From IMG/VR virus record IMGVR_UViG_3300027763_000031, positions 1 through 64,000 of that record: 64,000 bases of DNA; one strand, given 5' to 3'. This DNA comes from a virus (Duplodnaviria > Caudoviricetes). Position numbers and translations under genes: made by a program. Every line of letters starts with the position of its first letter. Position 1 is the first letter of the stretch. Below are positions 5,301 to 55,771 of this stretch, in pieces. The notes beneath the pieces are model-generated. The model was not told where the DNA came from and ran no database searches. It saw only the letters and a list, made by a program, of their open reading frames with translations.

Positions 5301-5864
5301 ATGGGGCAGGACGGCCCAAAAATAACAGAGGTCCACCCAACCCCTTTAGCCCCCCTAGCGCTATTACTCGAATGGGTCAGATCACCACTGGTAGACTCCA
5401 CCCTGAATGCCAATCAAATTGGCAATCTCAAGGGGTATACGCCTAGTGCATTAAATTGGTTGGTTGAAAATGAATATGTGGTTAGGTTCCATCGTGGTGG
5501 AGGAATGTTTAGGCCAGGCCCCCGCAGAACCAAAGTGGCGTCATATCCTGAACTTATCCGGGCTAGACTAGGTTTAAAGAAACCCAACCTAAAACCAAGC
5601 ACCATCCGATATTACAACTCTGTGCTAGGCATACGGCAACCTGAGGGTCTATTTAGAGTCAATGCAAAAGGTTTGCCTGCTATGTTTGAAGGTATCTTCG
5701 GGTTACCGCACCGGGTAAATGCAACCACATTCGCGAAAACTCATCAGCTACCAACCGCAAAAGTCAAAGAATGGTTTAGAGATTTAGTGAGGTCAGATCG
5801 GGCATCTATCGTCGCAGTTAGGGGCAAGCGACTGATTGTTTGCCGGGTGGAAACCGAACCTTGA
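5301..5864 (+). CDS. basic hypothetical protein
   Basis: 187-aa ORF, Arg/Lys-rich. Confidence 0.5.
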   Translation: MGQDGPKITEVHPTPLAPLALLLEWVRSPLVDSTLNANQIGNLKGYTPSALNWLVENEYVVRFHRGGGMFRPGPRRTKVASYPELIRARLGLKKPNLKPSTIRYYNSVLGIRQPEGLFRVNAKGLPAMFEGIFGLPHRVNATTFAKTHQLPTAKVKEWFRDLVRSDRASIVAVRGKRLIVCRVETEP

Positions 5865-20027: not shown

Positions 20028-23000
20028 AATACCTAACCTGGCGAGAGCGGGCCGCTCCGATAATCGCCCATGTCATATCCGAAGTTGGAACCACCGACCT
20101 GAAAATCCTCCGCAGCAAACTTCGAGAGGCTTATCCATTTGGGTTGAGGGAGTATTATCCGTATAAAACATGGTGTGATGAGATTAACCGGCAACTGATT
20201 TCGGAAAAAGTAAAAGCACCGAAGGCCATGCCTGCTGACCCTAACCAAATCACCCTATTTGAATCTTAAGTTGTACAAATGACACTTTCTGAAACTGACC
20301 TTAACCAAATCACCGAATCAATCTGCAACGCAGTTACCAAAGCCCAGTGCCTCTGGGAATGGGACAATGTCAACGATCCACCTTGCCACCCGTCTGATGA
20401 AGATTGGAAAGGGTGTAGTTCGTGCTATGCTAATCGAGAAATCCTAGCCGTTGCCTTCCGGGTCGCTGCGAACCACCTGCGCCCTGAAATTCTCGAAATT
20501 GGACAGTCTTTTATGGACCGATACGATCAAGCACTGAAACAACTGGCTGGAGTGATCGTTGAGGAACTAGAGCAAATTGCCAAACACTTGAAATCTTTTG
20601 ATTATGACTCATCAGAACCTTGATATGCTAACCAAAATTAAAGACTTTGCAGAGGATAACAGAGAACCTCTAATCGCGTTCGGTTTAGTTGGTACTCTAA
20701 TTGCCGGGTGTTCGTTTCTTCTGCTTCAACAGGAAAAAGCTTGGCAACAATTTGTAATTGACCATAATTGCGTAATTGTTGAACGTATCTTAGGGTCACC
20801 TACAATCGGTCATGGTTATGGAATGACTACCTCAGGTCAATTTGGTTATGGGATGGTTATAGGTAACGGATCGGATAAGACATCCTATGACTGTAACGAT
20901 GGAATTAGGTATACCAGATGATTTCACCCACCCCCTTCACTACACGGCTACCCGACCCTGAAAACGATTGCATGTCCCCCTTCATGGAAATCTGGGTGTT
21001 TTGTGATGATGGGTTTTGCGAGTTTGGGTGTTGGAGTTTATGGAAGTACGACCAACTCCTAGATTACCTCGACGACTGCAACGACCTCACTCACTGGTTA
21101 CCATACGACAAAATTCCACACCCAACAGAACAATGACTGACAAAACCCCGCTATAACAACTTACCGAGTGGCAAGAGCTTTCTGATTACTACCTGTCTCT
21201 ATACACAAAAGACTTAGTCGCACCGGAAAATTCCCTGTCTGTGGCTGTAGACCATTGGATGGATCCTATGGCCTTTGACAAAAGTTTCACACTACGGGCG
21301 AGGTGGAAATTAAATGAAAAAGAAACCACTCGTGATATTACTTTTTCAAGGTTCGAGTCTGAAATGAGTAATGGAACTCCGGTAGTCAAAGACGTAAAGA
21401 AACTTGCAGCGTCTATTGCTGAGGATGTAACTAAGGGCTTAGAAGAGGAAATGTTACGTTTCCTGGTCCAGAATGACCACTACAATACTGTCCGCCCATT
21501 GATTATGTCTGAACTTTACAGGCAATGATTACAACATTTCTTTTTCTCCTGGTATACACGGGCATTGCCGGTGCTACCGGATTCTTAATGGGGAGGGTGT
21601 TCTACCGTAATGAAAAGCAACTCCGAAAGATTGAGACTCGGCTCAGGACACATCCAGAGGAAGGTTTTGCAAAAGACGCAGAGAATTTGCGTAGAGACTG
21701 GGAACGAGCGACCGGAATTGTCTCAAGGAGTTTCAACAATCAAGGGAGATGAGCAAAAGTTGCGGATCCTGCATTAGCTTCATAAAGTATAAAAACCCAA
21801 CTTCATCGGGACTATGCGAAAAGTTAGACTGGTCCACCAAGTCAGATTGGGGACGTACCTGCCCCCACTGGGCCCGCAAACGCTACGACCGAAATCAATC
21901 AAAGCATTTAGCCAACAACGAAATAAACAACGAAGTCAAAACAAATGACCCCAACACGACCCTCATACATCCGCTGCATACGACACCCTCACGAGGATCT
22001 CTCAAAGCTGTCATGGTGCGGCCTTCCCTTGAGTAACTTTGACCTTCCTTTCGTAGACATCGACCACGCTGCCCATACTGTCAGGGACGAAGGTCGCCTT
22101 GTCCCCTGCCCAGACTGCATCAATGTGATTGCCTCGCTCCTATTTACTGTAATGGGCTACGCAATTATTGACCCAAAAGCAAAATGACCGAGCTTGACAA
22201 ATTGGCTCACCGAACCCGAACCCTATAGCATCCCCTACTCTGTGGACCCTGCTCAATTTGAGCCCTACGTAAAATGACAAAATTTGATGAAATTGCTAAT
22301 CGCCCAGATCATTCCTGGAACTGGTTTGCTCCAGACGGGTTAAACTCACTCGCATTAGACGGGGGCTTCACAAAAGAGCAACTTTTGGAATTGATACAGG
22401 CCATGGAAAACCCCGATGGCGATCCCGTGGTTTACACCGAAGAAATGGCAGCAGAGGACGACGAGTTACTGGCAAATGTGCCCACTCCACTAAGCACTTC
22501 AACGGGTGGAGACCCTGATGATCCTTCAAGAAATGGGGCAAGTTGATGAACAATGACCCAGACAATGTCTGAAGCACCTACCCCAATTTCCCTGGCCGAC
22601 CGTTTGCCTAGTGACCAAGACTGTGACATTGTTGAATGCTCTGCTTGGAAGATGAGACGCTGCTGGCTAGGAAAACCGCTTTACCATGCCGGAAACAAAC
22701 TATGGATCTGGGAGTGGGCGATTGCTCCAGAGACCCTGAAACTAGCGCCCTGGCCCCATACTCATTGGCTTCCTGCCGATACCGAAACCTTACCTGCCCG
22801 CAATGACTGACACAGAAAGAGCCTTAAAATTGCTTCAATTGCTTGAATCAACGTACCCGTCCACAGACTGGACATCCGTACCTGGGTTCACCCCGGAGCA
22901 AACCCAACTTGTGACAGTATTAATCAAACAACAAGTTTTGGAGGCTATGGATGAGGGGGTGTCCCTTGCGGTTGAAATGATCCGTTTGAGCCCTCCACAT

Positions 23001-29660: not shown

Positions 29661-30203
29661 ATGACGCCGACTCAGGAGCAATTTGTAAGATGGTGCGAGG
29701 ACTATTACTTTGACAATCGGCTGGAACCTGGTAATCCTTGCCATGGGGATTGGGAGTCTTGTCATTATCCTGTCCCAAAATGCTTGGGGGGAAGTAATAC
29801 TGTTCTTCTGCTCAAAGAGCACCATGCTATTCAAGGTGTTTTGCAGTCAGAGGAGTGTAACCACCCTTGTATTTGGGGTTGGGAGAAGTCTTACCTTAAG
29901 GCGGAGATTTTATCTCTTTGGCGAAAGTGGATGGGGGTAAAAGCACGTCCATTTACATTCGATAGTGGGAGAAAAGCTCAAAGCCTACGCAGTAAGGAAA
30001 GTTTAAGGAGAGGTTGGGAAAAAATGGTAAGCAAAGACCCTGAGATCCTTAGTAATAGTGGTAAAAAAATGGCTAAAAAAATCAATTCTAGGCGCGTACG
30101 CTGCTTAGTAACTGGAAAAATATCAACACCTGGCCCTCTCACTCTATATCAAACTGCTAGGGGCATTGATCCCTCGCTAAGGGAAGAAATTACTAATGAC
30201 TAA
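29661..30203 (+). CDS. free-standing HNH-like (homing-type) endonuclease
   Basis: ESCHYPVPKCLGGSNTVLLLKEHH resembles EXHHIXPXXXGG..N...L...EH; basic C-terminus. Confidence 0.6.
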   Translation: MTPTQEQFVRWCEDYYFDNRLEPGNPCHGDWESCHYPVPKCLGGSNTVLLLKEHHAIQGVLQSEECNHPCIWGWEKSYLKAEILSLWRKWMGVKARPFTFDSGRKAQSLRSKESLRRGWEKMVSKDPEILSNSGKKMAKKINSRRVRCLVTGKISTPGPLTLYQTARGIDPSLREEITND

Positions 30204-45243: not shown

Positions 45244-46983
45244 ATGGCTAAAAGATTTAAGACATCGCCTGTCCCAACCGGTGAAATAAGCTCGTACATC
45301 AGTAACCCGTATGCGCTTAGTTCCATTTACATGTTTGGTTCTAGCTCTCCTTTTACGGGGACTGGTTCCAGCATTGTTCGCCCTAATGACGATCTACTAA
45401 TCCAAAAGGGAGGTAATCGCGCATTATTAACTTACCAAAGGTTGCTATTGGATGAACAAGTCCAGGGTTCTTACTCTAAGTTGCTCCAGGAAGTTACGTC
45501 TAGGCCATGGTATGTTCGGGAATACAGCGATAAACCTGGGGATTTAGCCGTCAGGGACTTTGTAGCAGAAGTTTTAGAGGAGTTGCCAATAGACGATATT
45601 TTCAAGGGCTTAGCCGAAGCCTTAATTGTTGGTTTCAGTGTTGCGGAAGTAATGTGGAAGAAAACCAAGCGGGGTGTCATCCCATTTGATGTTCGAGTTA
45701 GAGATCAGCGCCGATTCGTCTTCCAAGAAGCTGAGGATTCTCAAACAGGTTTTACAATGCGTTGCTTGACATTCAATAGGATGTTTGAAGGTATCGAGCT
45801 ACCTGCGCGTAAATTCATCATCAATAGGTACTGGACTCAGCATAATGGGGATCCCTATGGTTCTTCGATTGGTCGTATTTTATATCCCCTGGTAAAGTTT
45901 AGGAGGAGGGCATTAGAGTCTTATGTGCTCTATGGTGATAGATACGCAACCCCGACTACCGTAGCAACCGCCCCCCTAAGTGCATCAACGGCCGAAATCG
46001 ATAATATTTACGGGATGATCTCTAATTTGTCCCAAGAGACCGCGATGGTTTTACCTGAAGGGTTCGTATTGGATTTTATTAACCCTGAAGGTAGCCCCGA
46101 TGTGTTTAAAGGCTTGATTGACTACCTAGATAAAGTCATTAGCCTTCTGATTTGCGGTGAAAATGAAGCTGGGCAGGCTGAGTCTGGTTCCAGGGCTTCG
46201 TCAATGGTTGCTAACGTAGTTCGAGTGGTGAGGGCATCTGAGATATCAGAAATGATCTGCCATCAACTAACTCAAACTTTGGTAAGGTGGATTGTAGATT
46301 TAAATTTTGGTGCTGATGTTGCATCTCCGACTTTAACTAGGGAGTTCAGAATTGAGGAGTCCCAACTGACACCCGCTGATGTTTCCCTATTGATTCAAAA
46401 TGGTTTCAAACCCCGTAGAGAATGGATTGAGAGACACTTTAGAGTTGATCTGGAAGATGAGGCTAAATCCGCTGAGGGCCAACAGGGTAGCGAAGGTGAA
46501 ACTACGTTTGACCCTGAAAAGGATAAGAACCTGTATGAGTCGATTTTCGGTCCAGAAGATGGTTCGGGTGGGGATGCTGAAGGGGCCCCAGGATCTACCA
46601 CTGAGATGACTCCGGATGATGTGGCCCCAGATGAAGGGGCCTCGGATGAGGGAATTCAGGGTGAAGAAACCCCGGATGAAGAGGCTCCGCCTGAGATGAC
46701 CCCAACTGAAGAAACCCCGGATGAGACGACTCCGAATGAAGAAGCTCCAACAAAGCAACCCCCTGTAGAAAAGAAACCAAAAATAAATAGCAAAGCCAAC
46801 AAAGAGTTAGACTCTTTACTATCCGATTTAGACTCCGCATTGGCTGAAAAACCAGGGGAATCAGAACTGGGAGAAATCCCCAAGGAAGGGTCAAATGAGA
46901 CCGAATCCACAAGTGAAATTTCCGGTAAGGAAATAGACTCTATAATATCAGAGATGGAAAACAAGGTCAAGGGTAAAAAATAA
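45244..46983 (+). CDS. portal protein (DUF935 / Mu gp29-like) with acidic C-terminal tail
   Basis: GFSVAEVMW, GDPYGSSIGR, DRYATP, ISLLICG, LVRWIVDLNFG. Confidence 0.85.
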   Translation: MAKRFKTSPVPTGEISSYISNPYALSSIYMFGSSSPFTGTGSSIVRPNDDLLIQKGGNRALLTYQRLLLDEQVQGSYSKLLQEVTSRPWYVREYSDKPGDLAVRDFVAEVLEELPIDDIFKGLAEALIVGFSVAEVMWKKTKRGVIPFDVRVRDQRRFVFQEAEDSQTGFTMRCLTFNRMFEGIELPARKFIINRYWTQHNGDPYGSSIGRILYPLVKFRRRALESYVLYGDRYATPTTVATAPLSASTAEIDNIYGMISNLSQETAMVLPEGFVLDFINPEGSPDVFKGLIDYLDKVISLLICGENEAGQAESGSRASSMVANVVRVVRASEISEMICHQLTQTLVRWIVDLNFGADVASPTLTREFRIEESQLTPADVSLLIQNGFKPRREWIERHFRVDLEDEAKSAEGQQGSEGETTFDPEKDKNLYESIFGPEDGSGGDAEGAPGSTTEMTPDDVAPDEGASDEGIQGEETPDEEAPPEMTPTEETPDETTPNEEAPTKQPPVEKKPKINSKANKELDSLLSDLDSALAEKPGESELGEIPKEGSNETESTSEISGKEIDSIISEMENKVKGKK

Positions 46984-46985
46984 GC

Positions 46986-49661
46986 ATGAGTAAATCCGAT
47001 AAAAAAGTGTTCTCAAAAAAAGTCCACGTATTTAAAGCTGGCCCCCAAACTAGCGCACAGGGTGTGCAGAGAAACTTCTCTGCTGACGACCTTAAGGAAG
47101 TTGCAAACTCATATGACCCCAAAGTCCATTCAGCCCCCCTTGTAATTGGCCACTCTGGAGATAACGACAGCGTACCTGCTTACGGGTGGATTAAAGGATT
47201 CTCTCAAAAGGGTGATGACTTATATGCAGATGTAGAATTTACGGACGTAGCTAAGGACTTGGTTAGAGGTGGTCATTATAGGAAAGTTTCCATTTCCTTC
47301 TATTCCCCCGATTCCCCCATTAACCCACACAAAGGCAAGTGGAGTGCAAGGCATTTGGCATTGCTCGGAGCTGCACCCCCAGCTGTGAAAGGCTTGGAGC
47401 CATTCTCTTTTAGCGAAGAAGAGGGAGTTTTCGACTTTGCAGTAGCCCTGTCCCCTGACCAACTTTTTGATAAGGACTTAGGACCGACGCTGCTTATAGA
47501 AAAAAGTCCCCTAGAAATGCTAAAAGAAAGACTAGATGAAGTCAAAAGTGAAGTCAATCAGTCCCTACAGCAATTAGAACAAAACCAGGACCAACAAACA
47601 GAATCGGATGTCGGCCAAGGCCAACAACCTGAAACTACAAATTCGGCGGATCAAAACGCCAACCCCGATAACCCTAATCAGCAATTCTCTGAAATGAAAA
47701 AGAACTTGGGGCGCGAAGGCGCTGAAATCACTGAGTCTACTCAAGAAGTAGCCAATCTAGAAACCAAAGCACCAGAAAACAAGCCAAAAATGCCCAAATC
47801 AAAAGTTTCTCCCAAAGCCAAACTTGATGATACCGAAGAAGACGGGGAGTTCAAGGAAGTTACCAAAGGTGGCAAAAAGTCCAAAATGATGGAAGAATCA
47901 CCTGAGGAAGAAGCCATGGAATCTCCTGAAGAAGAAATGGAAGAAGATTCCAAATACGCCGAAAAAGTCAAAGGCAAAATGACCAAAATGCCTATGGAAT
48001 CTCCTGAAGATGAATCAGAAGACGAAGGCACCGAATTCGAGGAAGGCATTAAGCGCCGTGTCTCTAAAGGAGCTGGTGGCCAGGAAGTTCAGGTTGTTGA
48101 GCAAGTATTTGAGGAAGGTATTGATTCTCAGCATAAGGAAGTTTCCAAGTCCAAGAAAAAGAAAGCCCCCAGTCAACCTGTGGACGAAACGGACATGGAC
48201 GAAGAGGAAATGGATGACGAGGATTCAGAGTACAATGAACTAGAGTACGACGAAGTTAGTCACAAAACCGCATCTAATGGGAAAGTATCCTTTGGTACCC
48301 ACAAAGGTGAAACCGGAGATAAAGTTACTGGCCGCTCAGTTACTGCCCGATCCAAAGATGATAGCTACGGAGCCCGTCAAAAGGCTGGTAAAGCCCCAGA
48401 GGAAGACCGCGATGGTGTAACCAGCGATGGTGAACAAGACGAGGACCGTCTCAAAACTGCAAAAAATAGCGAACAAGACGAAGACCGCCTAAAAACTGCC
48501 AGAGAGGAAGATGGTGACAATAGTCAGGAAGGTCGTTGGGCTGGTCAAGATACTATGGCCAAAGATAGAAACAACGATCAGTACGACGATGCCAGCACCA
48601 AGTACCCAGAGAAGCAACGTCCTGGAACTTCTGATGGGGAAGATCCCCATGGCCGCAGCGAAGGGCCCACCCCAGTTTCTAACCTTTCTGAGGAAGACCC
48701 CGACAATCTCGATATGGCAGTAGATGTCAAATCAGTTAAAGGTAACAAAACTTCCCGCGTCATTCACCAATCATCTAGCGACAAAAGACCCCCACTCAAA
48801 GGTGGCCCAATTGCCGACCATGCCGAAGGTGGTGAGCCTGATGAAGAGGGAGTCGGCCGAGAACCGAAATCCGCCAAGACTTCCAGTGGTAAAGCCCCCC
48901 GTGGCCGCGAGGGTGGCCCGACTGATTTCCCAACTCGCTCTGAGGAAGATCCTGATGACCTCGATATGGCAGTTGACCTAAAGGATGCTACCCAAAGTGA
49001 TAAGGTCCGGATTGTTCGTCAGAAGTCCGGTGAGAAGGCATCCGTCAATCATGCTGAAGGTGAAATGTCCCGCCGTAAAAAGGCAGCAGAAGAGGGAGAC
49101 CCGATGACCGTAACAGGCAAGGGTTCGACTTATAAGGAGCCTAAGGGTCCCATGGGAGCTTGTTCTGACGGGGAAGAAGAAGTTAAGTATAGCGGAATGG
49201 GTTCTGCCGGTCAAGCCCGTCCTACAGGGTTCCCAGCCCAAATCTACAAGGAGATCGAAGCCCTTAAGAAAGAAAACGATAGGCTCAAGAAGGAATTCGA
49301 AGAGCAGAAAGTCCATGCCCATAAACAAAGGATTTCCCACTACGTTGAGAATCTTTATAGCGACGGCAAACTGACCAATGCCATCATTCAGCAAGATGAT
49401 TTGCAAAGTTTCTGCGAAGGTTTAGAATTTGGAACCTTGGAATTCTCCGAAGGTGAAACACCAACGTCTAAACTCTTTGGAATCTTAAATCGCCTGCCAA
49501 GCATGGTGCATTTTGGAGAAATTGTTGGACCGGAAGACAAAGCATTTGAAGCAACCTTAGAAAACATGGACCCCCATGAAAGGGCCCTTGAAATGGTAAA
49601 ACGCGGTGAAGCCTCCGACTACTTGGAAGCCATCAAAACTTGCCTTTGGACTTCTAACTGA
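46986..49661 (+). CDS. prohead protease/scaffold protein (Mu-like) with long acidic linker
   Basis: APLVIGH, PAYGWI, YRKVSISFY, HLALLGAAPPAVKGL; C-terminal coiled coil. Confidence 0.85.
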   Translation: MSKSDKKVFSKKVHVFKAGPQTSAQGVQRNFSADDLKEVANSYDPKVHSAPLVIGHSGDNDSVPAYGWIKGFSQKGDDLYADVEFTDVAKDLVRGGHYRKVSISFYSPDSPINPHKGKWSARHLALLGAAPPAVKGLEPFSFSEEEGVFDFAVALSPDQLFDKDLGPTLLIEKSPLEMLKERLDEVKSEVNQSLQQLEQNQDQQTESDVGQGQQPETTNSADQNANPDNPNQQFSEMKKNLGREGAEITESTQEVANLETKAPENKPKMPKSKVSPKAKLDDTEEDGEFKEVTKGGKKSKMMEESPEEEAMESPEEEMEEDSKYAEKVKGKMTKMPMESPEDESEDEGTEFEEGIKRRVSKGAGGQEVQVVEQVFEEGIDSQHKEVSKSKKKKAPSQPVDETDMDEEEMDDEDSEYNELEYDEVSHKTASNGKVSFGTHKGETGDKVTGRSVTARSKDDSYGARQKAGKAPEEDRDGVTSDGEQDEDRLKTAKNSEQDEDRLKTAREEDGDNSQEGRWAGQDTMAKDRNNDQYDDASTKYPEKQRPGTSDGEDPHGRSEGPTPVSNLSEEDPDNLDMAVDVKSVKGNKTSRVIHQSSSDKRPPLKGGPIADHAEGGEPDEEGVGREPKSAKTSSGKAPRGREGGPTDFPTRSEEDPDDLDMAVDLKDATQSDKVRIVRQKSGEKASVNHAEGEMSRRKKAAEEGDPMTVTGKGSTYKEPKGPMGACSDGEEEVKYSGMGSAGQARPTGFPAQIYKEIEALKKENDRLKKEFEEQKVHAHKQRISHYVENLYSDGKLTNAIIQQDDLQSFCEGLEFGTLEFSEGETPTSKLFGILNRLPSMVHFGEIVGPEDKAFEATLENMDPHERALEMVKRGEASDYLEAIKTCLWTSN

Positions 49662-49666
49662 GCTAA

Positions 49667-50428
49667 ATGGATCTCCTTTCCTTAATTGGCTCTGTCACTA
49701 AAAGGAGGGGAGATTTTTTCTCTAATGCCGAATCGCTAGCCAAAAAAGCTAAAACCATCGGGAACCTAGAGAGCATGATGCTCAGGGATTCTAAGCTTTT
49801 AGTTAAGTCTCTTAAGGACAAAGACATAAAGTGGGACGAGTTTTCTCGTGCCATGGTTGACAAAACCTTAGAGGCATCTTTGGCAGGAGTCTACCTTGGG
49901 TCAGCATCATCGAAGCCTAAAGCAAAATTGGAAAAAGCATGGCCAACAGTTGTCGGACAATTGGTGCCACCATTACTTAAATTCCTCGATGTGACAAAGG
50001 CCCGATTTGAAAATAATGCAATCTCTATAGTCGGTGACGAAATGGATTTTGCCTCCAAAGGTCCATCTGGCGACTATGATTGGGACATCCTTGATGATCC
50101 TGATTACGATTCGGAAGATCCTGAGGTTCAGGATGCCATACAGAATTCGATTGATTCCGGTGTGGGGCAAACCTGGCAAGGGGTTTTTTCTAGGGTTTCT
50201 CGCTACCTTGTTACCCCAGCTTACGCATTTTTTCAACTGGGTGATTACCTAGTGAAGGAAGAACAGGGCCACAAGGAAATGATGCGAGTTGCCAAAAAGG
50301 ACAAAAAAACTTGCAAAGAATGCAAAGAATACGAGAAGCTAGGTTGGCAGCCAATCGGTTCCCTACCACTTCCTGGGCAGAGATGCAGATGCTATGGCAG
50401 ATGTAGATGTCTGGTCAATTACCGGTAG
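49667..50428 (+). CDS. putative head morphogenesis/minor capsid protein
   Basis: C-terminal TCKEC...GWQPIGSLPLPG..C.C...CRC. Confidence 0.6.
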   Translation: MDLLSLIGSVTKRRGDFFSNAESLAKKAKTIGNLESMMLRDSKLLVKSLKDKDIKWDEFSRAMVDKTLEASLAGVYLGSASSKPKAKLEKAWPTVVGQLVPPLLKFLDVTKARFENNAISIVGDEMDFASKGPSGDYDWDILDDPDYDSEDPEVQDAIQNSIDSGVGQTWQGVFSRVSRYLVTPAYAFFQLGDYLVKEEQGHKEMMRVAKKDKKTCKECKEYEKLGWQPIGSLPLPGQRCRCYGRCRCLVNYR

Positions 50429-50536
50429 CCCATCAGCAACCCCACGTAAGTGGGGGTAAAACCAATTATCACATCAGCTAGGTGAAAAACAAGTCCTAGA
50501 GTAAACCAAAAGTCAACACATATTAAGAAAAAGATC

Positions 50537-51010
50537 ATGAGTCTAAACATTGCACCCGTTTACGCAAAACAGTACATCAGATATGCTTCCACCTGGCAAG
50601 CCGCTACCGACAACCAAGCTGGTAGTATTGGCGTAGTCGAAATCCCCGAATTTTCGGTTGTCGCTCAAGCAACCTATGCCGGGGCTAATAAGGTTTGCTC
50701 CCCTGGTAATTTAACATCCTTTACCGGGGCTATCGTAGGTGTTAGCCAGTCTTACATCCCGACTGCACTATCTCAACCTCAAACTGCCCGTCAAGTTAGT
50801 GTCGCCAGTAGCGGCTCTTTGATCGTCGAAGTTAGCGCTTCGGCTGTCGCTGCTTTTACCATTGGTAGCCGCCTTTCGGTTGGCACCGACGGTAAAGCGC
50901 TCCCAACCGCCAACAGCGGTGTGAACGTTACCTTAGATGGTACCACTCCACTTATTCGTGAGATTGTTACGATCGGTCGTCGTACCTTGGTTGTTGCGAC
51001 TTTCAACTGA
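50537..51010 (+). CDS. putative head decoration/capsid cement protein
   Basis: small Ala/Gly/Val-rich beta protein directly before the capsid gene; IVGVSQ, SVASSG, FTIGSRLSVGTDGKA. Confidence 0.6.
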   Translation: MSLNIAPVYAKQYIRYASTWQAATDNQAGSIGVVEIPEFSVVAQATYAGANKVCSPGNLTSFTGAIVGVSQSYIPTALSQPQTARQVSVASSGSLIVEVSASAVAAFTIGSRLSVGTDGKALPTANSGVNVTLDGTTPLIREIVTIGRRTLVVATFN

Positions 51011-51032
51011 TTGCTGATTGAATTTTTACTAT

Positions 51033-51058
51033 GGGGCTCCGAAAGGGGCTCCTTTTTT
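51033..51058 (+). terminator. Rho-independent terminator
   Basis: ggggctcc-gaaa-ggggctcc + T6. Confidence 0.85.
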
Positions 51059-51179
51059 ATAGTTAGGCTTCCATTAGCAAAGTGTGGGTATAACTACAGT
51101 GACCCCGAAGTTTTCGGACTTTTGGGTTAGATTGCCAACGCAATCTTTGAAGTCAACCTAGAAAAGGAAATCATCTATT

Positions 51180-54100
51180 ATGATGAATCATGGCGGTTCC
51201 GCTCAAGGGTAACCTTGGGATGAAAATTGGGTGAATTGCTGGGAAGCCTACGGCTTCAAACGAAAGTTTGATGCTATGGTAATCAGCAGCGAAGCGTTTT
51301 CGGGAGAAAACGAACGTTCAACGACTAACAGCATACTACTAGAACAGTAATGAAGCTGACACGAGCGCCCGACTCTTTGCTTAGGTAAAGATGATGATAT
51401 AGTCTGAACTTTGTAGAAATACAAAGATGTGAAGGATAAAGAGCCTTTACGATAACATAATGCTACAACAGACCTACGCAGGGGTCGATCCCATTTTTTA
51501 GAGTGGCTTTGTTTTTAACAAAGAAAATCCGGTGAATTGCTGGGAAGCCTACGGCTTCAAACGAAAGTTTGATGCTATGGTAATCAGCAGCCAAGGCTTT
51601 TAGGGATAAAAGCAAGGTTCAACGACTAGATTAAGTAGCCTAGAACAGGTGAACAATCCACGAGCGCCGGGCGTTTTGTTTACAAAACGATGATATAGTC
51701 TGAACTCTTTGGAAACAAAGAGAGGTAGGGGATAAAGAGCCTCTACGTTAACAAATGTCTCACCACCCTCGCGCAAGGTTTCATGCTACCGTCTACCAAC
51801 ATTGCGAATCAATGAGGTTCCTTCAGGGGGTGACCCCTGTCGAATAATCGGGTGAACTGCTGGGACACCTTACTTTTGCTATGCAAAAGAGGCAATCAGC
51901 AGCCAAGTTTACTTCGGGTCTCTTGTTGCTATAATAAGAGTGAAGTAAGAAGGTTCAACGACTAGAAAGTGACTGACCCAAGAATAATCTTTCCACGAGC
52001 GCCCGACTCTTTGCTTAGGCAAAGATGATGATATAGTCTAAACTGCATGGAAACATGCAGAGCAAAACGTTAAGTTTTGTATATTATTCATAGCACCGGT
52101 GGTAGACACGCCAACTCGTGCAGGACGTATCCTGCGCTTCGGTATTCCATATGCCGCTTAACTCCGTGAGGGGTTATGAAAAATTGGGTGAATTGCTGGG
52201 AAGCCTACGGCTTCAAACGAGAGTTTGAAAGCTATGGTAATCAGCAGCGAAGCCGTCAAGGGATTGACGGAACGTTCAACGACTAGAGTTAGTAATCTAG
52301 AACAGATGAAAACTCCACGAGCGCCTGACGTTTTGTTTACAAAACGATGATATAGTCTGAACTCTTTGGAAACAAAGAGAGGTAGGGGATAAAGAGCCCC
52401 TGCGATAACATAATTGAAGGAACAGTAAATAGCTTGCTGTTGTAAAATTGGGTGAATTGCTGGGAACCCCTAACGTAAAGGCGAGGGAAATCAGCAGCCA
52501 AGTCTACTGCGTCGAGGAATCACTATGATTTCTGTAGTGGAAAGGTTCAACGACTAGACGATGAGTTTCGACAACAATAACTCGTCCACGAGCGCCCGAC
52601 GTTTTGTTTACAAAACGATGATATAGTCTGATCTGCATAGAAACATGCAGAGGTAGGGAATAAAGAGTCTCTACGATAACATGGTGTTGCTATCAACGAC
52701 TTCCGTCGTGCTTACGGTAATTAGTTTGTGCCGTAAATAAATTGGGTGAATTGCTGGGAAGCCTACGGTTTCAAACGAGAGTTTGACGCTATGGTAATCA
52801 GCAGCGAAGCCGTCAAGGGATTGACGGAACGTTCAACGACTAGATTAAGTAGCCTAGAACAGGTGAACAATCCACGAGCGCCCAATGCCCTACATAGTAA
52901 TGTAAGGCAAAGATATAGTCTGACCTACATGGAAACATGTAGAAGCAAGGGATAAAGAACCTTTGCGATAACAAATGACAAACATCCCCTACGTCCAAAG
53001 CCGTTACGACTCCGAGCCTTATGCTCTGGAGCAGGAAGTGGTCGCATGGGAATTGCCTAAATCTTTGGGCCTTGCCGTTGCCTAGTTAGCGCGGTAAGAA
53101 TAATAGGGTGAATTGCTGGAAAGCCCCCAACTTAATGGCCAATCAGCAGCGAAGCGTTTTCGGGAGAAAACGAACGTTCAACGACTAGATTAAGTAGCCT
53201 AGAACAGGTGAACAATCCACGAGCGCCTTACGTCTGACTAACCTTTATAGGGGGGTATAGACGGTGATATAGTCTGAACTGTAAAGATGGTAAATTTACA
53301 GAAACAAAGGATAAAGAGCCTTTGTGATAACAACCTTGGAAGAGGTTAGATCGATAGCCTCCGTCAGTTGAAAAACTGATAGAAAAAACTGGGTGAATTG
53401 CTGGGAAGCCTACGGCTTCAAACGAAAGTTTGATGCTATGGTAATCAGCAGCCAAGGCTTTTAGGGATAAAAGCAAGGTCCAACGACTAACAGCATACTA
53501 CTAGAACAGTAATGAAGCTGACACGAGCGCCCAGCACCCTGATAAGGGTGAAGATATAGTCTGAACTTTCTGGAAACAGAGAGAAGTAAAGGATAAAGAG
53601 CCTTTGCGATAACATTATTGAATCGAGAACGCAGGGGAAGGTTGTAAGGGCCTTCCTTGTGACAAAGGTCACTAAAAATCGGGTGAATTGCTGGGACACC
53701 TTACTTTTGCTACGCAAAAGAGGCAATCAGCAGCCAAGGCTTTTAGGGATAAAAGCAAGGTTCAACGACTAGAGTTAGTAATCTAGAACAGATGAAAACT
53801 CCACGAGCGCCTGATGTCTTACCGTGCTTAACGGTGGGGCAAAGATATAGTCTGAACTCCATGGAAACATGGAGAAGTATGGGATAAAGAGCCCGTACGG
53901 TAACAACATTTTGCCTGCACAAGTGGATTATTTTTTACGAACGATTTCGATCGCAGCGTAGGTCCACTATAAATTGGGTGAATTGCTGGAACCCCCGAGT
54001 GGGCAATCAGCAGCGAAGCCGTCAAGGGATTGACGGAACGTTCAACGACTAACAGCATACTACTAGAACAGTAATGAAGCTGACACGAGCGCCCAATGTC

Positions 54101-55217
54101 TTACAAAGTACAGTAATCGTGTACATAGTGGGGCAATAATATAGTCTGAACATTACCAACAACAAGGTAATGAATCGGCGGATAAAGAGCCGCTGAGTTA
54201 ACAAATGCTACGCGCCATCGAGACTCGCAATGCGATGTCTAGGCTAAACACATTGGCCCTATGAGATTAGTCTCATTTAGAAAATTGGGTGAATTGCTGG
54301 GAAGCCTACGGCTTCAAACGAAAGTTTGATGCTATGGTAATCAGCAGCGAAGCCGTCAAGGGATTGACGGAACGTTCAACGACTAACAGCATACTACTAG
54401 AACAGTAATGAAGCTGACACGAGCGCCCGACGTTTTGTTTACAAAACGATGATATAGTCTGAACTGCATAGAAACATGCAGAAGCAAGGGATAAAGAGCC
54501 CTCGCGATAACATAATGAATGAACAGCTACGAGTACACCGTTGCTCAAGCTGTTTCAGTGACTGGCAGCTACAATCCATACGAGCCCTACAATGGGACTC
54601 CTGGCTCACAAACTGGTCTTGGTTTTACAACCTGGACTACCTTCAACACCGCTTATGGCACAGCCACTGGCCCTGCCGCATGGTCTGGTGCAACCTCTAA
54701 TCCCATTGAGGACATCCTGACCCTGAAGCGTGCTGTTGCCAACCAGATCGGCATTCGTCCGAACTCTGCTGTTCTTGGAACTTCAGTTTTCGACCTCTTG
54801 CTGACCAACGAAGCGATCCTTGATCGTATCAAGTACACCTCCGCCGATAGCATCGACACAGATGTCATCGCTCGCTACTTCGGTCTTGAGCGTGGCCTGC
54901 GCGTAGCTGAAGGGCGTTATTTGGCCAACGACGGCTCCTTGCAGCCTGTCTTCCCCGCCAATGGCATCCTCCTGTTCTACAGCCCCAACGGTCCTTCTGA
55001 TTCGATCATGCCTGCGGGTGGTGCTAATGCTGCGACTCCGGCCTTCAGTTATACTTATCAGTTGACAGGTACCCCAGCCGTCCGTCCCGAGTACTACATT
55101 CGCGAACGCCGTGTCGTGCGTGCTGAAATCACCATCGAACGTGTGGTTAACTTGGTTGGCCTCGGTGCATCTGGTCTTATCGGTTCTGGCGCTATGATCA
55201 CCAACATCTTGTCCTGA
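51180..55217 (+). CDS. major capsid protein, 351 aa, 12 exons: 51180-51188, 51463-51494, 51758-51809, 52087-52143, 52417-52426, 52687-52718, 52978-53058, 53339-53346, 53621-53642, 53914-53928, 54208-54245, 54518-55217
   Basis: joined exons = 1056 nt with no internal stop: MMNLQQTYAGVDPILTTLAQGFMLPSTNIANFIAPVVDTPTRAGRILRFGKEQFAINDFRRAYGTNIPYVQSRYDSEPYALEQEVVAWELPEEVIENAGEGPAQVDLRAIETRNAMSRLMNSYEY...; VDPILT.LAQG, FGKE.F, PIEDI...K..V....GIRPN are capsid-like; position after protease and decoration genes. Confidence 0.9.
51189..51462 (+). ncRNA. group I intron 1 (274 nt, phase 0)
   Basis: P gaattgctgggaa, Q aatcagcag, R gttcaacgacta, S gatatagtc; P1 GAAT/GTTC; ends in G. Confidence 0.9.
51495..51757 (+). 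ncRNA. group I intron 2 (263 nt, phase 2)
   Basis: PQRS core; P1 CCAT/GTGG; P3 ccggtg/cgccgg; ends in G. Confidence 0.9.
51810..52086 (+). ncRNA. group I intron 3 (277 nt, phase 0; apparent terminal A)
   Basis: PQRS core; P1 GAAT/GTTC; P10 ATGAG/TTCAT; atypical 3' domain. Confidence 0.8.
52144..52416 (+). ncRNA. group I intron 4 (273 nt, phase 0)
   Basis: PQRS core; P1 CGGT/GCCG; P10 TTCC/GGAA. Confidence 0.9.
52427..52686 (+). ncRNA. group I intron 5 (260 nt, phase 1)
   Basis: PQRS core; P1 AACAGT/GCTGTT; P10 ATAGC/GCTAT. Confidence 0.9.
52719..52977 (+). ncRNA. group I intron 6 (259 nt, phase 0)
   Basis: PQRS core; P1 TTACGGT/GCCGTAA; P10 GTTTGT/ACAAAC. Confidence 0.92.
53059..53338 (+). 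ncRNA. group I intron 7 (280 nt, phase 0)
   Basis: PQRS core; P1 GCCT/GGGC; P10 TCTTT/GAAGA. Confidence 0.9.
53347..53620 (+). ncRNA. group I intron 8 (274 nt, phase 2)
   Basis: PQRS core; P1 GAGGT/GCCTC; P10 TCGAT/ATCGA. Confidence 0.9.
53643..53913 (+). ncRNA. group I intron 9 (271 nt, phase 0)
   Basis: PQRS core; P1 GGAAGGT/GCCTTCC. Confidence 0.9.
53929..54207 (+). ncRNA. group I intron 10 (279 nt, phase 0)
   Basis: PQRS core; P1 AGTGGAT/GTCCACT with enlarged loop; P10 GCGTAG/CTACGC. Confidence 0.9.
54246..54517 (+). ncRNA. group I intron 11 (272 nt, phase 2)
   Basis: PQRS core; P1 GGCT/GGCC; P10 CATT/AATG. Confidence 0.9.
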
Positions 55218-55245
55218 TAAGGATAGGAAATAAAGAGGTGATCCC

Positions 55246-55689
55246 ATGGCAATTCTCAGACCTTTAACAAAGTCGCAATACGAGGTATCGTTCGTAGCTC
55301 CCAACGGGGTGTCTTTAATCGCTGTTTTTACAAAATTCAGTGGTATCAAAGATTCTTCAGAAAAGAGCGAATACGCCAATGGCACTGGAAACCGAAAGTA
55401 CCATGTCGTTGGCCCACGAACTGCAGATAATGTTACTCTTACTGCTCCGTATGATCCTACGATCTTCAAGCAACTAGAGAACTTCTGGTTAAACTACAAT
55501 TGTCAAGATGTTACCGTTACAGTAACCCCTAGGGACTGTACTGGTACAGGATCTGCTCCAGCCGGTGGCGCGTACACCTGCTACGGTTGTAAATTCCTAT
55601 CAATCACTACTGCCAACGTTGATCGCGACAGCGGAAACGTCCAGGAAATTGAAGTGGAACTGACCGTCAATATTTGGGACAGAACTTGA
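55246..55689 (+). CDS. tail tube protein
   Basis: FTKFSGI, GPRTADNVTLT, V.VTP, Y..YGC, DRDSGNVQEIEVELTV; GAGG SD. Confidence 0.75.
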   Translation: MAILRPLTKSQYEVSFVAPNGVSLIAVFTKFSGIKDSSEKSEYANGTGNRKYHVVGPRTADNVTLTAPYDPTIFKQLENFWLNYNCQDVTVTVTPRDCTGTGSAPAGGAYTCYGCKFLSITTANVDRDSGNVQEIEVELTVNIWDRT

Positions 55690-55707
55690 TTTTGTGGTTC
55701 AGTAATT

Positions 55708-55729
55708 GCCCCCGAAAGGGGGCTTTTTT
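55708..55729 (+). terminator. Rho-independent terminator
   Basis: gccccc-gaaa-gggggc + T6. Confidence 0.9.
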
Positions 55730-55771
55730 GTAGGCAGGGTAAAACATACATAACAGGATTACCAACGGATA

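Follow-up and report, generated by a model that had tools for sequence, protein, structure and literature searches.

Eleven group I introns without open reading frames in the major capsid gene of a large freshwater phage, with homing endonucleases at most of the same sites in its relatives

Introduction

The 64,000-nucleotide (nt) stretch of viral DNA analysed here, positions 1 to 64,000 of the IMG/VR record IMGVR_UViG_3300027763_000031 (hereafter the window), contains a phage major capsid gene that is split by eleven group I introns. Introns in DNA polymerase genes of the Bacillus SPO1 type carry the HNH endonuclease I-HmuI. In the cyanophage Pf-WMP3, the endonuclease I-PfoP3I is described within a group IA2 intron (PMC3428280). 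The capsid introns and their counterparts in relatives have in common with such mobile IA phage introns a small core of IA type in which P7 and P3 are separated by an extra segment, an HNH open reading frame (ORF) in a peripheral loop, which here is found in the relatives' versions, and residence in an essential phage gene in which the intron is optional among relatives. Known genes of this kind hold one to three introns, whereas here eleven interrupt a single coding sequence (CDS) of 1,056 nt, thirteen interrupt the same gene of the nearest relative, G001, and about 15 sites are used across the lineage. Only the capsid array has a separate endonuclease lineage for each site, and the window copies all lack an ORF.

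Among intron-rich phages, crAss-like phages of the Zeta and Delta groups were reported to carry up to 14 introns per genome, with a capsid gene in five fragments and a genome-wide density called unprecedented (PMC7886860), and Jug phages were reported to carry a mean of 18.5 introns per genome, with terL in two to three fragments and splicing confirmed by metatranscriptome reads (PMC12880540). As the main texts of these reports describe them, both resemble the present locus in the large number of group I introns that interrupt core genes, that of the capsid among them, and in the endonuclease domains of the insertions, and differ from it in the absence of 12–14 exon pieces in a single gene and of micro-exons of 5–15 nt. 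The intron density per gene found here exceeds any stated in those main texts, whose supplementary tables may hold denser genes.

The homing cycle of Goddard and Burt is said to run through invasion, fixation, endonuclease decay, and loss. Its stages have likenesses here in lone endonuclease-bearing introns of otherwise empty relatives, ORF-less introns in an intron-rich clade, decaying ORFs, and empty sites nearby. Unlike a single cycle, many cycles would run in parallel within 350 nt of one gene, and, beyond the cycle as stated, the copies exchange interior helices, an exchange that may itself remove endonuclease genes, as intron 7 suggests. In nuclear ribosomal DNA, multi-site families of group I introns are known, for which spread by reverse splicing has been proposed (PMC1299323). 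The capsid array resembles them in that a single gene has many sites occupied by related introns, whose short guides each match their own site, and differs in lying in a protein-coding phage gene, in having endonucleases at most sites, and in showing no significant sharing of guide words. The report on the Pseudanabaena phage PA-SR01 (PMC10286775), in whose accessible text introns occur only in an endonuclease annotation, was set aside as not relevant. A literature search that covered few subscription journals and no supplements found no report of this capsid-gene array.

The array is extreme in degree but lies within an established framework, that of HNH-endonuclease group I introns in phages, of the homing cycle, and of intron-rich genomes. 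Beyond this framework are the density per gene, the correctly spliced micro-exons, the packing of endonuclease lineages into 350 nt, the shuffling of ribozyme modules, and a terminal A in one intron. We consider it probable (about 0.8) that classical homing, endonuclease loss, and recombination between introns account for the array, with no new route of spread needed.

Splice map of the capsid gene

An Rfam search with the group I intron model RF00028 gave 11 matches on the + strand at 51119–54481, scoring 55.1–101 bits against a gathering score of 50. Splice sites were set by a 5′ exon ending in U paired to a guide G, with the capsid protein of Synechococcus phage S-CBWM1, whose capsid gene is uninterrupted, serving as a ruler. 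The resulting twelve exons (9, 32, 52, 57, 10, 32, 81, 8, 22, 15, 38, and 700 nt) and eleven introns (259–280 nt) are given below; exon rows without further comment rest on protein alignment and RNA contigs, scores are for RF00028, and L numbers denote IMG/VR loci of relatives.

51180–51188, + strand: exon 1, 9 nt, ATG, codons 1–3; S-CBWM1 alignment and RNA joint 51188>51463
51189–51462, + strand: intron 1, 274 nt, after CDS nt 9; 91.5 bits; P1 GAAT/GTTC; joint in three RNA runs
51463–51494, + strand: exon 2, 32 nt
51495–51757, + strand: intron 2, 263 nt, after CDS nt 41; 93.6 bits; P1 CCAT/GTGG; joint 51494>51758 in three RNA runs; endonuclease-bearing counterpart in L030, L033, and L034
51758–51809, + strand: exon 3, 52 nt
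51810–52086, + strand: intron 3, 277 nt, after CDS nt 93; 94.4 bits; P1 GAAT/GTTC, P10 ATGAG/TTCAT; terminal A; joint 51809>52087 in three RNA runs
52087–52143, + strand: exon 4, 57 nt
52144–52416, + strand: intron 4, 273 nt, after CDS nt 150; 85.8 bits; P1 CGGT/GCCG; excised in RNA contigs
52417–52426, + strand: micro-exon 5, 10 nt; letters retained in RNA contigs between joint sides 52144 and 52687
52427–52686, + strand: intron 5, 260 nt, after CDS nt 160; 94.7 bits; P1 AACAGT/GCTGTT; endonuclease remnant in P7.x
52687–52718, + strand: exon 6, 32 nt
52719–52977, + strand: intron 6, 259 nt, after CDS nt 192; 89.8 bits; P1 7 bp, P10 6 bp; joint 52718>52978
52978–53058, + strand: exon 7, 81 nt
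53059–53338, + strand: intron 7, 280 nt, after CDS nt 273; 61.3 bits; G001 counterpart of 861 nt with a 211-aa phrog_655 endonuclease
53339–53346, + strand: micro-exon 8, 8 nt; retained between joint sides 53058 and 53621 in three RNA runs
53347–53620, + strand: intron 8, 274 nt, after CDS nt 281; 101 bits; P1 GAGGT/GCCTC; endonuclease-bearing counterparts in L035 and L037
53621–53642, + strand: exon 9, 22 nt
53643–53913, + strand: intron 9, 271 nt, after CDS nt 303; 90.6 bits; P1 9 bp; absent from G001; endonuclease-bearing counterparts in L030, L034, L040, and L095
53914–53928, + strand: exon 10, 15 nt; retained between joint sides 53642 and 54208
53929–54207, + strand: intron 10, 279 nt, after CDS nt 318; 55.1 bits; P1 7 bp, P10 6 bp; endonuclease-bearing counterpart in L082
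54208–54245, + strand: exon 11, 38 nt
54246–54517, + strand: intron 11, 272 nt, after CDS nt 356; 89.2 bits; joint 54245>54518 in two of three RNA runs; 1023-nt endonuclease-bearing counterpart in L040
54518–55217, + strand: exon 12, 700 nt including the stop codon; intron-free C-terminal two thirds; Phage_cap_E

The joined CDS encodes a product of 351 amino acids (aa) that aligns without gaps to the S-CBWM1 capsid protein across its first 141 residues. The ORF at 54519–55217 (232 aa), within the last exon, belongs to the Phage_cap_E family (Pfam PF03864; E 1.2e-8, 34.8 bits against a cut-off of 22.9), and the protein of this exon shares 63% identity with the S-CBWM1 protein over the latter's C-terminal two thirds. 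The intron-split gene is the major capsid gene, of the Phage_cap_E family, of a large freshwater phage; gene callers would report just a 232-aa capsid fragment at the locus. An earlier reading made from the letters alone (the sequence-only reading) had placed the array at 51189–54280: its start is exact, and its end falls inside intron 11, the true end being 54517. The same reading had described the last 232 codons as intron-free, which is true of the window and fails as a rule for the lineage, G001 having two introns there. It had also seen the core nowhere else in the window, and both the search of the remaining window with RF00028, which gave no further group I intron, and a hidden Markov model (HMM) of the intron family, which returned the same 11 copies and nothing more at E ≤ 1, agree with this. 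Hairpins lying just past the splice sites of introns 1, 3, and 4 were also tried as P1; they gave stop codons or extra residues, and these hairpins are P2.

Splicing in environmental contigs

Splicing is documented by environmental contigs. The IMG/VR contig L021 is 100% identical to window positions 47004–51188 plus 54518–55730, with all 11 introns precisely gone. At its positions 5742–5837, this contig also holds a 96-nt copy of window 54553–54647 joined after 55730, probably an assembly artefact.

Contigs were compared at the region from one DNA run (X1) and three metatranscriptome runs (X15, X16, and X17), the RNA runs coming from three studies that possibly belong to one campaign. The RNA runs contain the joints 51188>51463, 51494>51758, 51809>52087, 52718>52978, and 54245>54518, together with three double joints that keep the letters of the 10-, 8-, and 15-nt exons; all 11 junctions are thus covered. 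The joint 54245>54518 was found in two of the three RNA runs, and in the third a contig starting at 54518 has the exon-11 letters as a loose end. Contigs of intron sequence are present alongside the spliced ones in the RNA runs, and stretches that no RNA contig covers carry no weight either way. In the DNA run, intron-containing contigs extend over all 30 bins and none of the RNA-run joints was found. The eleven introns are accurately excised and the twelve exons joined in nature, and we infer that the introns self-splice without protein help. The correct handling of 8–15-nt exons between two ribozymes bears on how neighbouring group I ribozymes fold without interference.

Ribozyme structure and guide sequences

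Each intron is a complete ribozyme comprising P3–P9 and an intact G-binding P7. All eleven have a U·G pair at the 5′ splice site, a P1 of 4–9 bp, and a P10 of 3–7 bp to their own 3′ exon; the claim that every copy carries a guide for its own exons therefore stands throughout, including the examples GTTTGT/GCCGTAA of intron 6 and GCGTAG/GTCCACT of intron 10. The guides also follow synonymous exon changes in relatives: at site 281 (sites are named by the CDS nucleotide that precedes the intron), an exon ending in GAAGT occurs with the guide GGCTTC and one ending in GAGGT with GCCTC. Across the 11 aligned copies, pairing holds in 98.7% of 451 cells of P3, P4, P6, P7, P9, and P9.1, and 22 of 41 pairs have changed on both sides; no shuffle among 500 matched the observed pairing and compensation. 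Chance is excluded by these values. A 30–33-nt segment between P7 and P3′, present in 11/11 introns, may correspond to a trait of subgroup IA2 (an extra P7.1/P7.2 pairing), and the introns appear subgroup-IA-like.

The cores had been called almost identical, which overstates their likeness: identity across whole introns is 63–85% (mean 73%), only 76 of 335 alignment columns are invariant, and identity of 100% between copies, where it occurs, is limited to single helices. No intron has room for an endonuclease, as had been noted; at lengths of 259–280 nt, the longest stop-free stretch in six frames of all 11 introns is 85 codons.

Site occupancy and homing endonucleases in relatives

A search of IMG/VR with the last exon identified 289 relatives, of which the best 80 were analysed; with G001, the set comprised 81. 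Whole coding sequences were available for 69 loci (68 of the best 80, plus G001). The spliced aligner misplaced boundaries in truncated or diverged loci (L022–L024, L027, and L028), and such rows were left out of the site counts; its site "70/74" was corrected to 75 and site "893" of G001 to 891, and "site 322" in L040 was misplaced.

Intron number among the 69 whole-CDS loci is zero in 52 and ranges from 1 to 13 in 17. A tree built from the intron-free 3′ portion of the gene has 12 leaves in the window clade, and every one of them carries introns, most of these without an ORF. Of the 58 leaves outside that clade, 52 have no intron; one or two are present in each of the remaining 6, and 7/7 of these introns are of endonuclease size. 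The nearest relative, G001, is a complete 279-kb phage genome with terminal repeats whose capsid gene carries 13 introns. It shares ten window sites, lacks intron 9 (its flanking exons being contiguous), and has three extra introns, so that 4 sites differ; one of the extra introns (site 36) leaves a 5-nt exon, and two lie in the 3′ part of the gene. The 5-nt exon reads CCCAT and lies between the site-36 and site-41 introns (L019, reverse strand); the window, without a site-36 intron, differs at two synonymous positions just 5′ of site 36. A 215-nt intron of the same family follows CDS nt 75 in L029, L031, L032, and L035, and this site is empty in the window and in G001.

Endonuclease genes are found at most window sites in these relatives. 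The G001 introns at sites 273 and 891 contain ORFs of 211 and 216 aa, which match PHROG "homing endonuclease" at E 6e-21 and 5e-30 and have an HNH-like motif; a Pfam scan of the two ORFs, which PHROGs did match, gave nothing at E ≤ 0.01. Introns of 800–1020 nt occur in various relatives at sites 9, 41, 93, 281, 303, 318, and 357, and endonuclease-bearing counterparts are known for 8 of the 11 window sites (9, 41, 93, 273, 281, 303, 318, and 356/357). Intron ORFs of at least 100 codons numbered 26, and all ten that were scanned against PHROGs (two from G001 and eight from other relatives) match phrog_655, "homing endonuclease", at E 4e-12 to 5e-30. The endonucleases cluster by site, with 52–100% identity within a site and 10–40% across sites, the exception being sites 303 and 318 (50–67%). 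By these identities they are old and site-specific, and at least nine such lineages circulate in the relatives.

Traces of decay are also present. ORFs at sites 9 and 93 have shrunk to 107–151 codons. The P7.x segment of window intron 5 encodes the first 12 endonuclease residues, matching the N-terminus of the site-303 and site-281 endonucleases, and intron 3 keeps an N-terminal remnant resembling the site-41 endonuclease. A 64-kb search of the window outside the introns found no homologue of the intron endonuclease family, the family HMM giving nothing below E 0.1, and crude HNH, GIY-YIG, and LAGLIDADG motif patterns had no match in its six frames. Two candidates were discarded: phmmer matches inside the window introns were traced to one ORF overlapping the ribozyme core, and the ORF at 29661–30203 had a weak tblastn match (E 0.004) and no PHROG match. 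G001 has two intronic endonucleases of this family and one further weak match.

In the wider scan for more copies that the sequence-only reading had proposed, RF00028 matches in G001 fall in the capsid gene and otherwise only in a DNA primase gene (phrog_25243, approximately 20378–21454), which is split by three introns whose core is of another type; the window gave no homologue of this primase gene. An exact 24-nt core word located 27 further IMG/VR stretches, in which 175 of 191 family HMM matches lie within 1.5 kb of detectable capsid exons; the remaining 16 are on contig ends or at greater distance upstream. Contigs of the DNA run have ends (at window 52687 and 52719) that pass directly from one exon into another over sites 150/160 and 192 and differ in synonymous bases, and intron-free (empty-site) relatives are therefore present in the same run. 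Together, dozens of related contigs with 0–13 introns, with or without endonucleases, constitute a natural experiment on the homing cycle; the set also suits the study of endonuclease loss by recombination between paralogues and of co-evolution between guides and synonymous exon changes.

The clustering at the 5′ end of the gene noted earlier holds up: none of the 11 window sites falls beyond nt 356 of the 1,056-nt CDS (P = 6e-6). Across the lineage, 15 sites can be placed and 13 of them fall within the first 357 nt; the lineage-wide binomial had assumed 14 of 16. Residues 1–119 are 98.6% identical to those of the 52 intron-less relatives, and the rest of the protein 85%. The clustering is probably due to the location of the sites in the most conserved third of the protein, the usual type of homing-endonuclease target.

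Exchange of interior helices between introns

The interior helices each occur in a few discrete forms, which are combined differently from intron to intron. The orthologous introns of the window and G001 have P6 forms that differ (38–60% identity) at 6 of their 10 common sites, and in five of these six discordant cases the window P6 matches, at 100% identity, the P6 of an intron located at a different site. The P7–P3 linker has the same swapped pattern at 3 of the 10 shared sites. At the P1/P2 end, by comparison, identity is 87–100% between orthologues versus 57–71% to the best paralogue. Such a pattern would be expected from recombination or gene conversion among tandem copies, with selection holding the guides to their sites. 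The cores look alike because interior helices (P6, P7.x, and P8) have been repeatedly exchanged between the tandem copies.

Intron 7 illustrates how exchange may affect gene content. The window copy differs from the endonuclease-bearing intron 7 of G001 in P6, the linker, and P8, and its P6 and linker are identical to those of other ORF-less copies, which suggests that conversion from a paralogue removed the intron 7 endonuclease gene.

Origin and maintenance of the array

In the reading we favour, each intron pairs through the guide at its 5′ end with the exons that flank it, forming P1 (with U·G at the cleavage point) on the 5′ side and P10 on the 3′ side; all 11 introns leave the pre-mRNA, and the 12 exons, including the pieces of 8–15 nt, form one capsid mRNA. 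The window introns would represent the endonuclease-less stage of a conventional mobile intron family. In the phage population, each site would have its own diverged HNH homing endonuclease, encoded from the P7–P3 linker into the P8 loop, which, as gene content and the pattern of presence and absence lead us to infer, would drive homing into the empty sites of co-infecting relatives. The endonuclease genes would have been lost in the window lineage, interior helices would have been swapped between tandem copies by recombination or gene conversion, and selection for splicing would keep the P1, P10, and P2 ends matched to their own sites. The sequence-only reading had argued that classical homing cannot explain the array and that an undescribed retargeting route might operate. 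With endonuclease-bearing introns at 8 of 11 sites in relatives, no such route is needed, and what that reading had named as the finding that would speak against it, old endonuclease-bearing introns that were later homogenised, largely describes these eight sites and the exchanged interiors.

Several points weigh against this account of homing, loss, and recombination. Homing does not account for how one intron family first arrived at approximately 15 sites of a single gene, and sites 150, 160, and 192 have no endonuclease-bearing intron among the 81 relatives. The 10–40% identity between endonucleases of different sites raises repeated capture of endonucleases as an alternative to common descent of intron and endonuclease. 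The window phage may have endonucleases or introns beyond the 64 kb. The RNA evidence consists of assembled metatranscriptome contigs, not reads, and such libraries can contain DNA; an intron-free DNA variant of identical sequence is, however, an unlikely source of the joints. The intron-rich third shows no more than a modest reduction in nucleotide diversity (0.103 versus 0.145), and the argument from a conserved target therefore rests mostly on the protein level.

The founding of the many sites, or at least of the three without a known endonuclease version, would be accounted for if excised introns reverse-spliced into nearby capsid RNA matching the 4–6-nt guide, followed by reverse transcription and recombination. 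The short P1 helices (4–9 bp) that such spread needs are present, and the tight clustering of sites counts in its favour. Four site pairs (9/93, 36/318, 150/192, and 281/303) have the last 4 nt of the 5′ exon in common, 36/318 sharing 6 nt, and the introns at sites 9 and 93 have the same guide word and are mutual best paralogues in P1–P2 within the window (71%). However, this word sharing is not significant, with four 4-nt pairs against 1.6–1.8 expected (P 0.07–0.11) and one 6-nt pair (P 0.08–0.11), and 8 of 11 sites have an old endonuclease of their own. Intron trees cannot be used to trace donors because of the interior recombination. A reverse transcriptase, another of the features proposed as a check, was not found in the complete G001 genome with RVT_1, a search that covered the phage genome only and to which control genomes responded. 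We regard guide-directed spread as unlikely. That introns break up CRISPR (clustered regularly interspaced short palindromic repeats) protospacers in a conserved gene agrees with their location in the most conserved part of the protein; DNA-targeting spacers could equally hit the introns, themselves repeated and conserved, and the endonuclease data are already a sufficient explanation, which leaves this the least credible of the proposals. Scarcely better placed is the suggestion that removal of eleven introns delays or tunes capsid protein synthesis. Nothing was found to support it: the presence of both spliced and intron contigs in the RNA libraries is no direct support, kinetics cannot be obtained from contig data, and no fixed intron number can be required because occupancy ranges from 0 to 13 in close relatives with nearly identical proteins.

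Compatible with homing, loss, and recombination is the possibility that ORF-less introns are kept by selection, each destroying the target of an endonuclease of co-infecting relatives, so that a genome with all sites filled would be safe from the whole nuclease set without the cost of carrying nucleases. The idea is a version of the protection from rival-phage nucleases that had been suggested from the letters: once a site is occupied, the homing endonuclease that matches it can no longer cut there. It is consistent with the site-specific endonuclease lineages (at least nine) in relatives, with the empty-site relatives (150/160 and 192) in the DNA run, and with an intron-rich clade whose introns are mostly ORF-less and still splicing-competent. 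Against it, retention would be equally expected if precise intron loss were merely rare, and 52 of the 69 relatives do well without any intron; we consider it possible, at rather less than even odds. A more elaborate version is more tentative still: at least nine endonucleases acting on a conserved 350 nt would favour filling all targets with cheap ORF-less introns, recombination between tandem copies would purge endonucleases and keep the cores fit, and a ribozyme with an unchanged G-site would now ligate after a terminal A. If this were true, P10/P9.0 could suffice by itself to select the 3′ splice site of a natural intron of bacterial type.

The terminal A of intron 3

The last base is G in ten of the 11 introns and A in intron 3. 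The residues FIAPVV of S-CBWM1 are obtained only when GAAT is joined to TTCAT, a junction further supported by a P1 of 4 bp next to a P10 of 5 bp. The joint is present in all three RNA runs, with skipped ends CA..TA and zero positional ambiguity. An alternative junction with a canonical U and a terminal G would drop one residue and leave a P1 of just 3 bp, and is ruled out by the joints in the RNA runs. The first base after P7 (in the region 52031–52043) is A in intron 3 and G in the other ten introns, and the G-binding P7 pair of intron 3 is unaltered. G001 is identical to the window at the intron's 3′ end (52080–52093) and in the region of the base after P7. The terminal A is recent because the site-93 introns of six other relatives end in G.

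The sea-anemone mitochondrial group I intron ND5-717 is reported to have a terminal A in place of the conserved G, with correct exon ligation in RNA data (PMC8146996). Intron 3 resembles it as a natural group I intron whose last nucleotide is A and whose exons are ligated correctly according to RNA; ND5-717, in contrast to this phage intron, is described as an obligatory, vertically inherited organellar intron (PMC8146996). A literature search found no phage or bacterial group I intron with a terminal A. Intron 3 departs from a rule of group I catalysis that is nearly universal, and does so in a simple form open to experiment.

Genomic context

The 64-kb window is phage-like, with nearly all long ORFs on the + strand. 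A Mu-type portal gene (45244–46983) lies upstream of the capsid locus, and a gp19-like tail-tube gene (55246–55689) lies 3′ of the capsid gene. Megablast of the region against phage records gave only matches of 50–62 nt, to introns of Bacillus and Staphylococcus phages. The P3–P5 part of intron 5 (52441–52502) is 94–96% identical over 50–51 nt to stretches of Bacillus and Staphylococcus phages and 89% identical over 62 nt in phage SEP9; one alone of the matching Bacillus and Staphylococcus phage records annotates a group I intron there. The 891-aa ORF at 46986–49661, upstream of the capsid gene, contains imperfect repeats (25–35 nt, 86–92% identity) at 47900–49000, seen as secondary BLAST matches.

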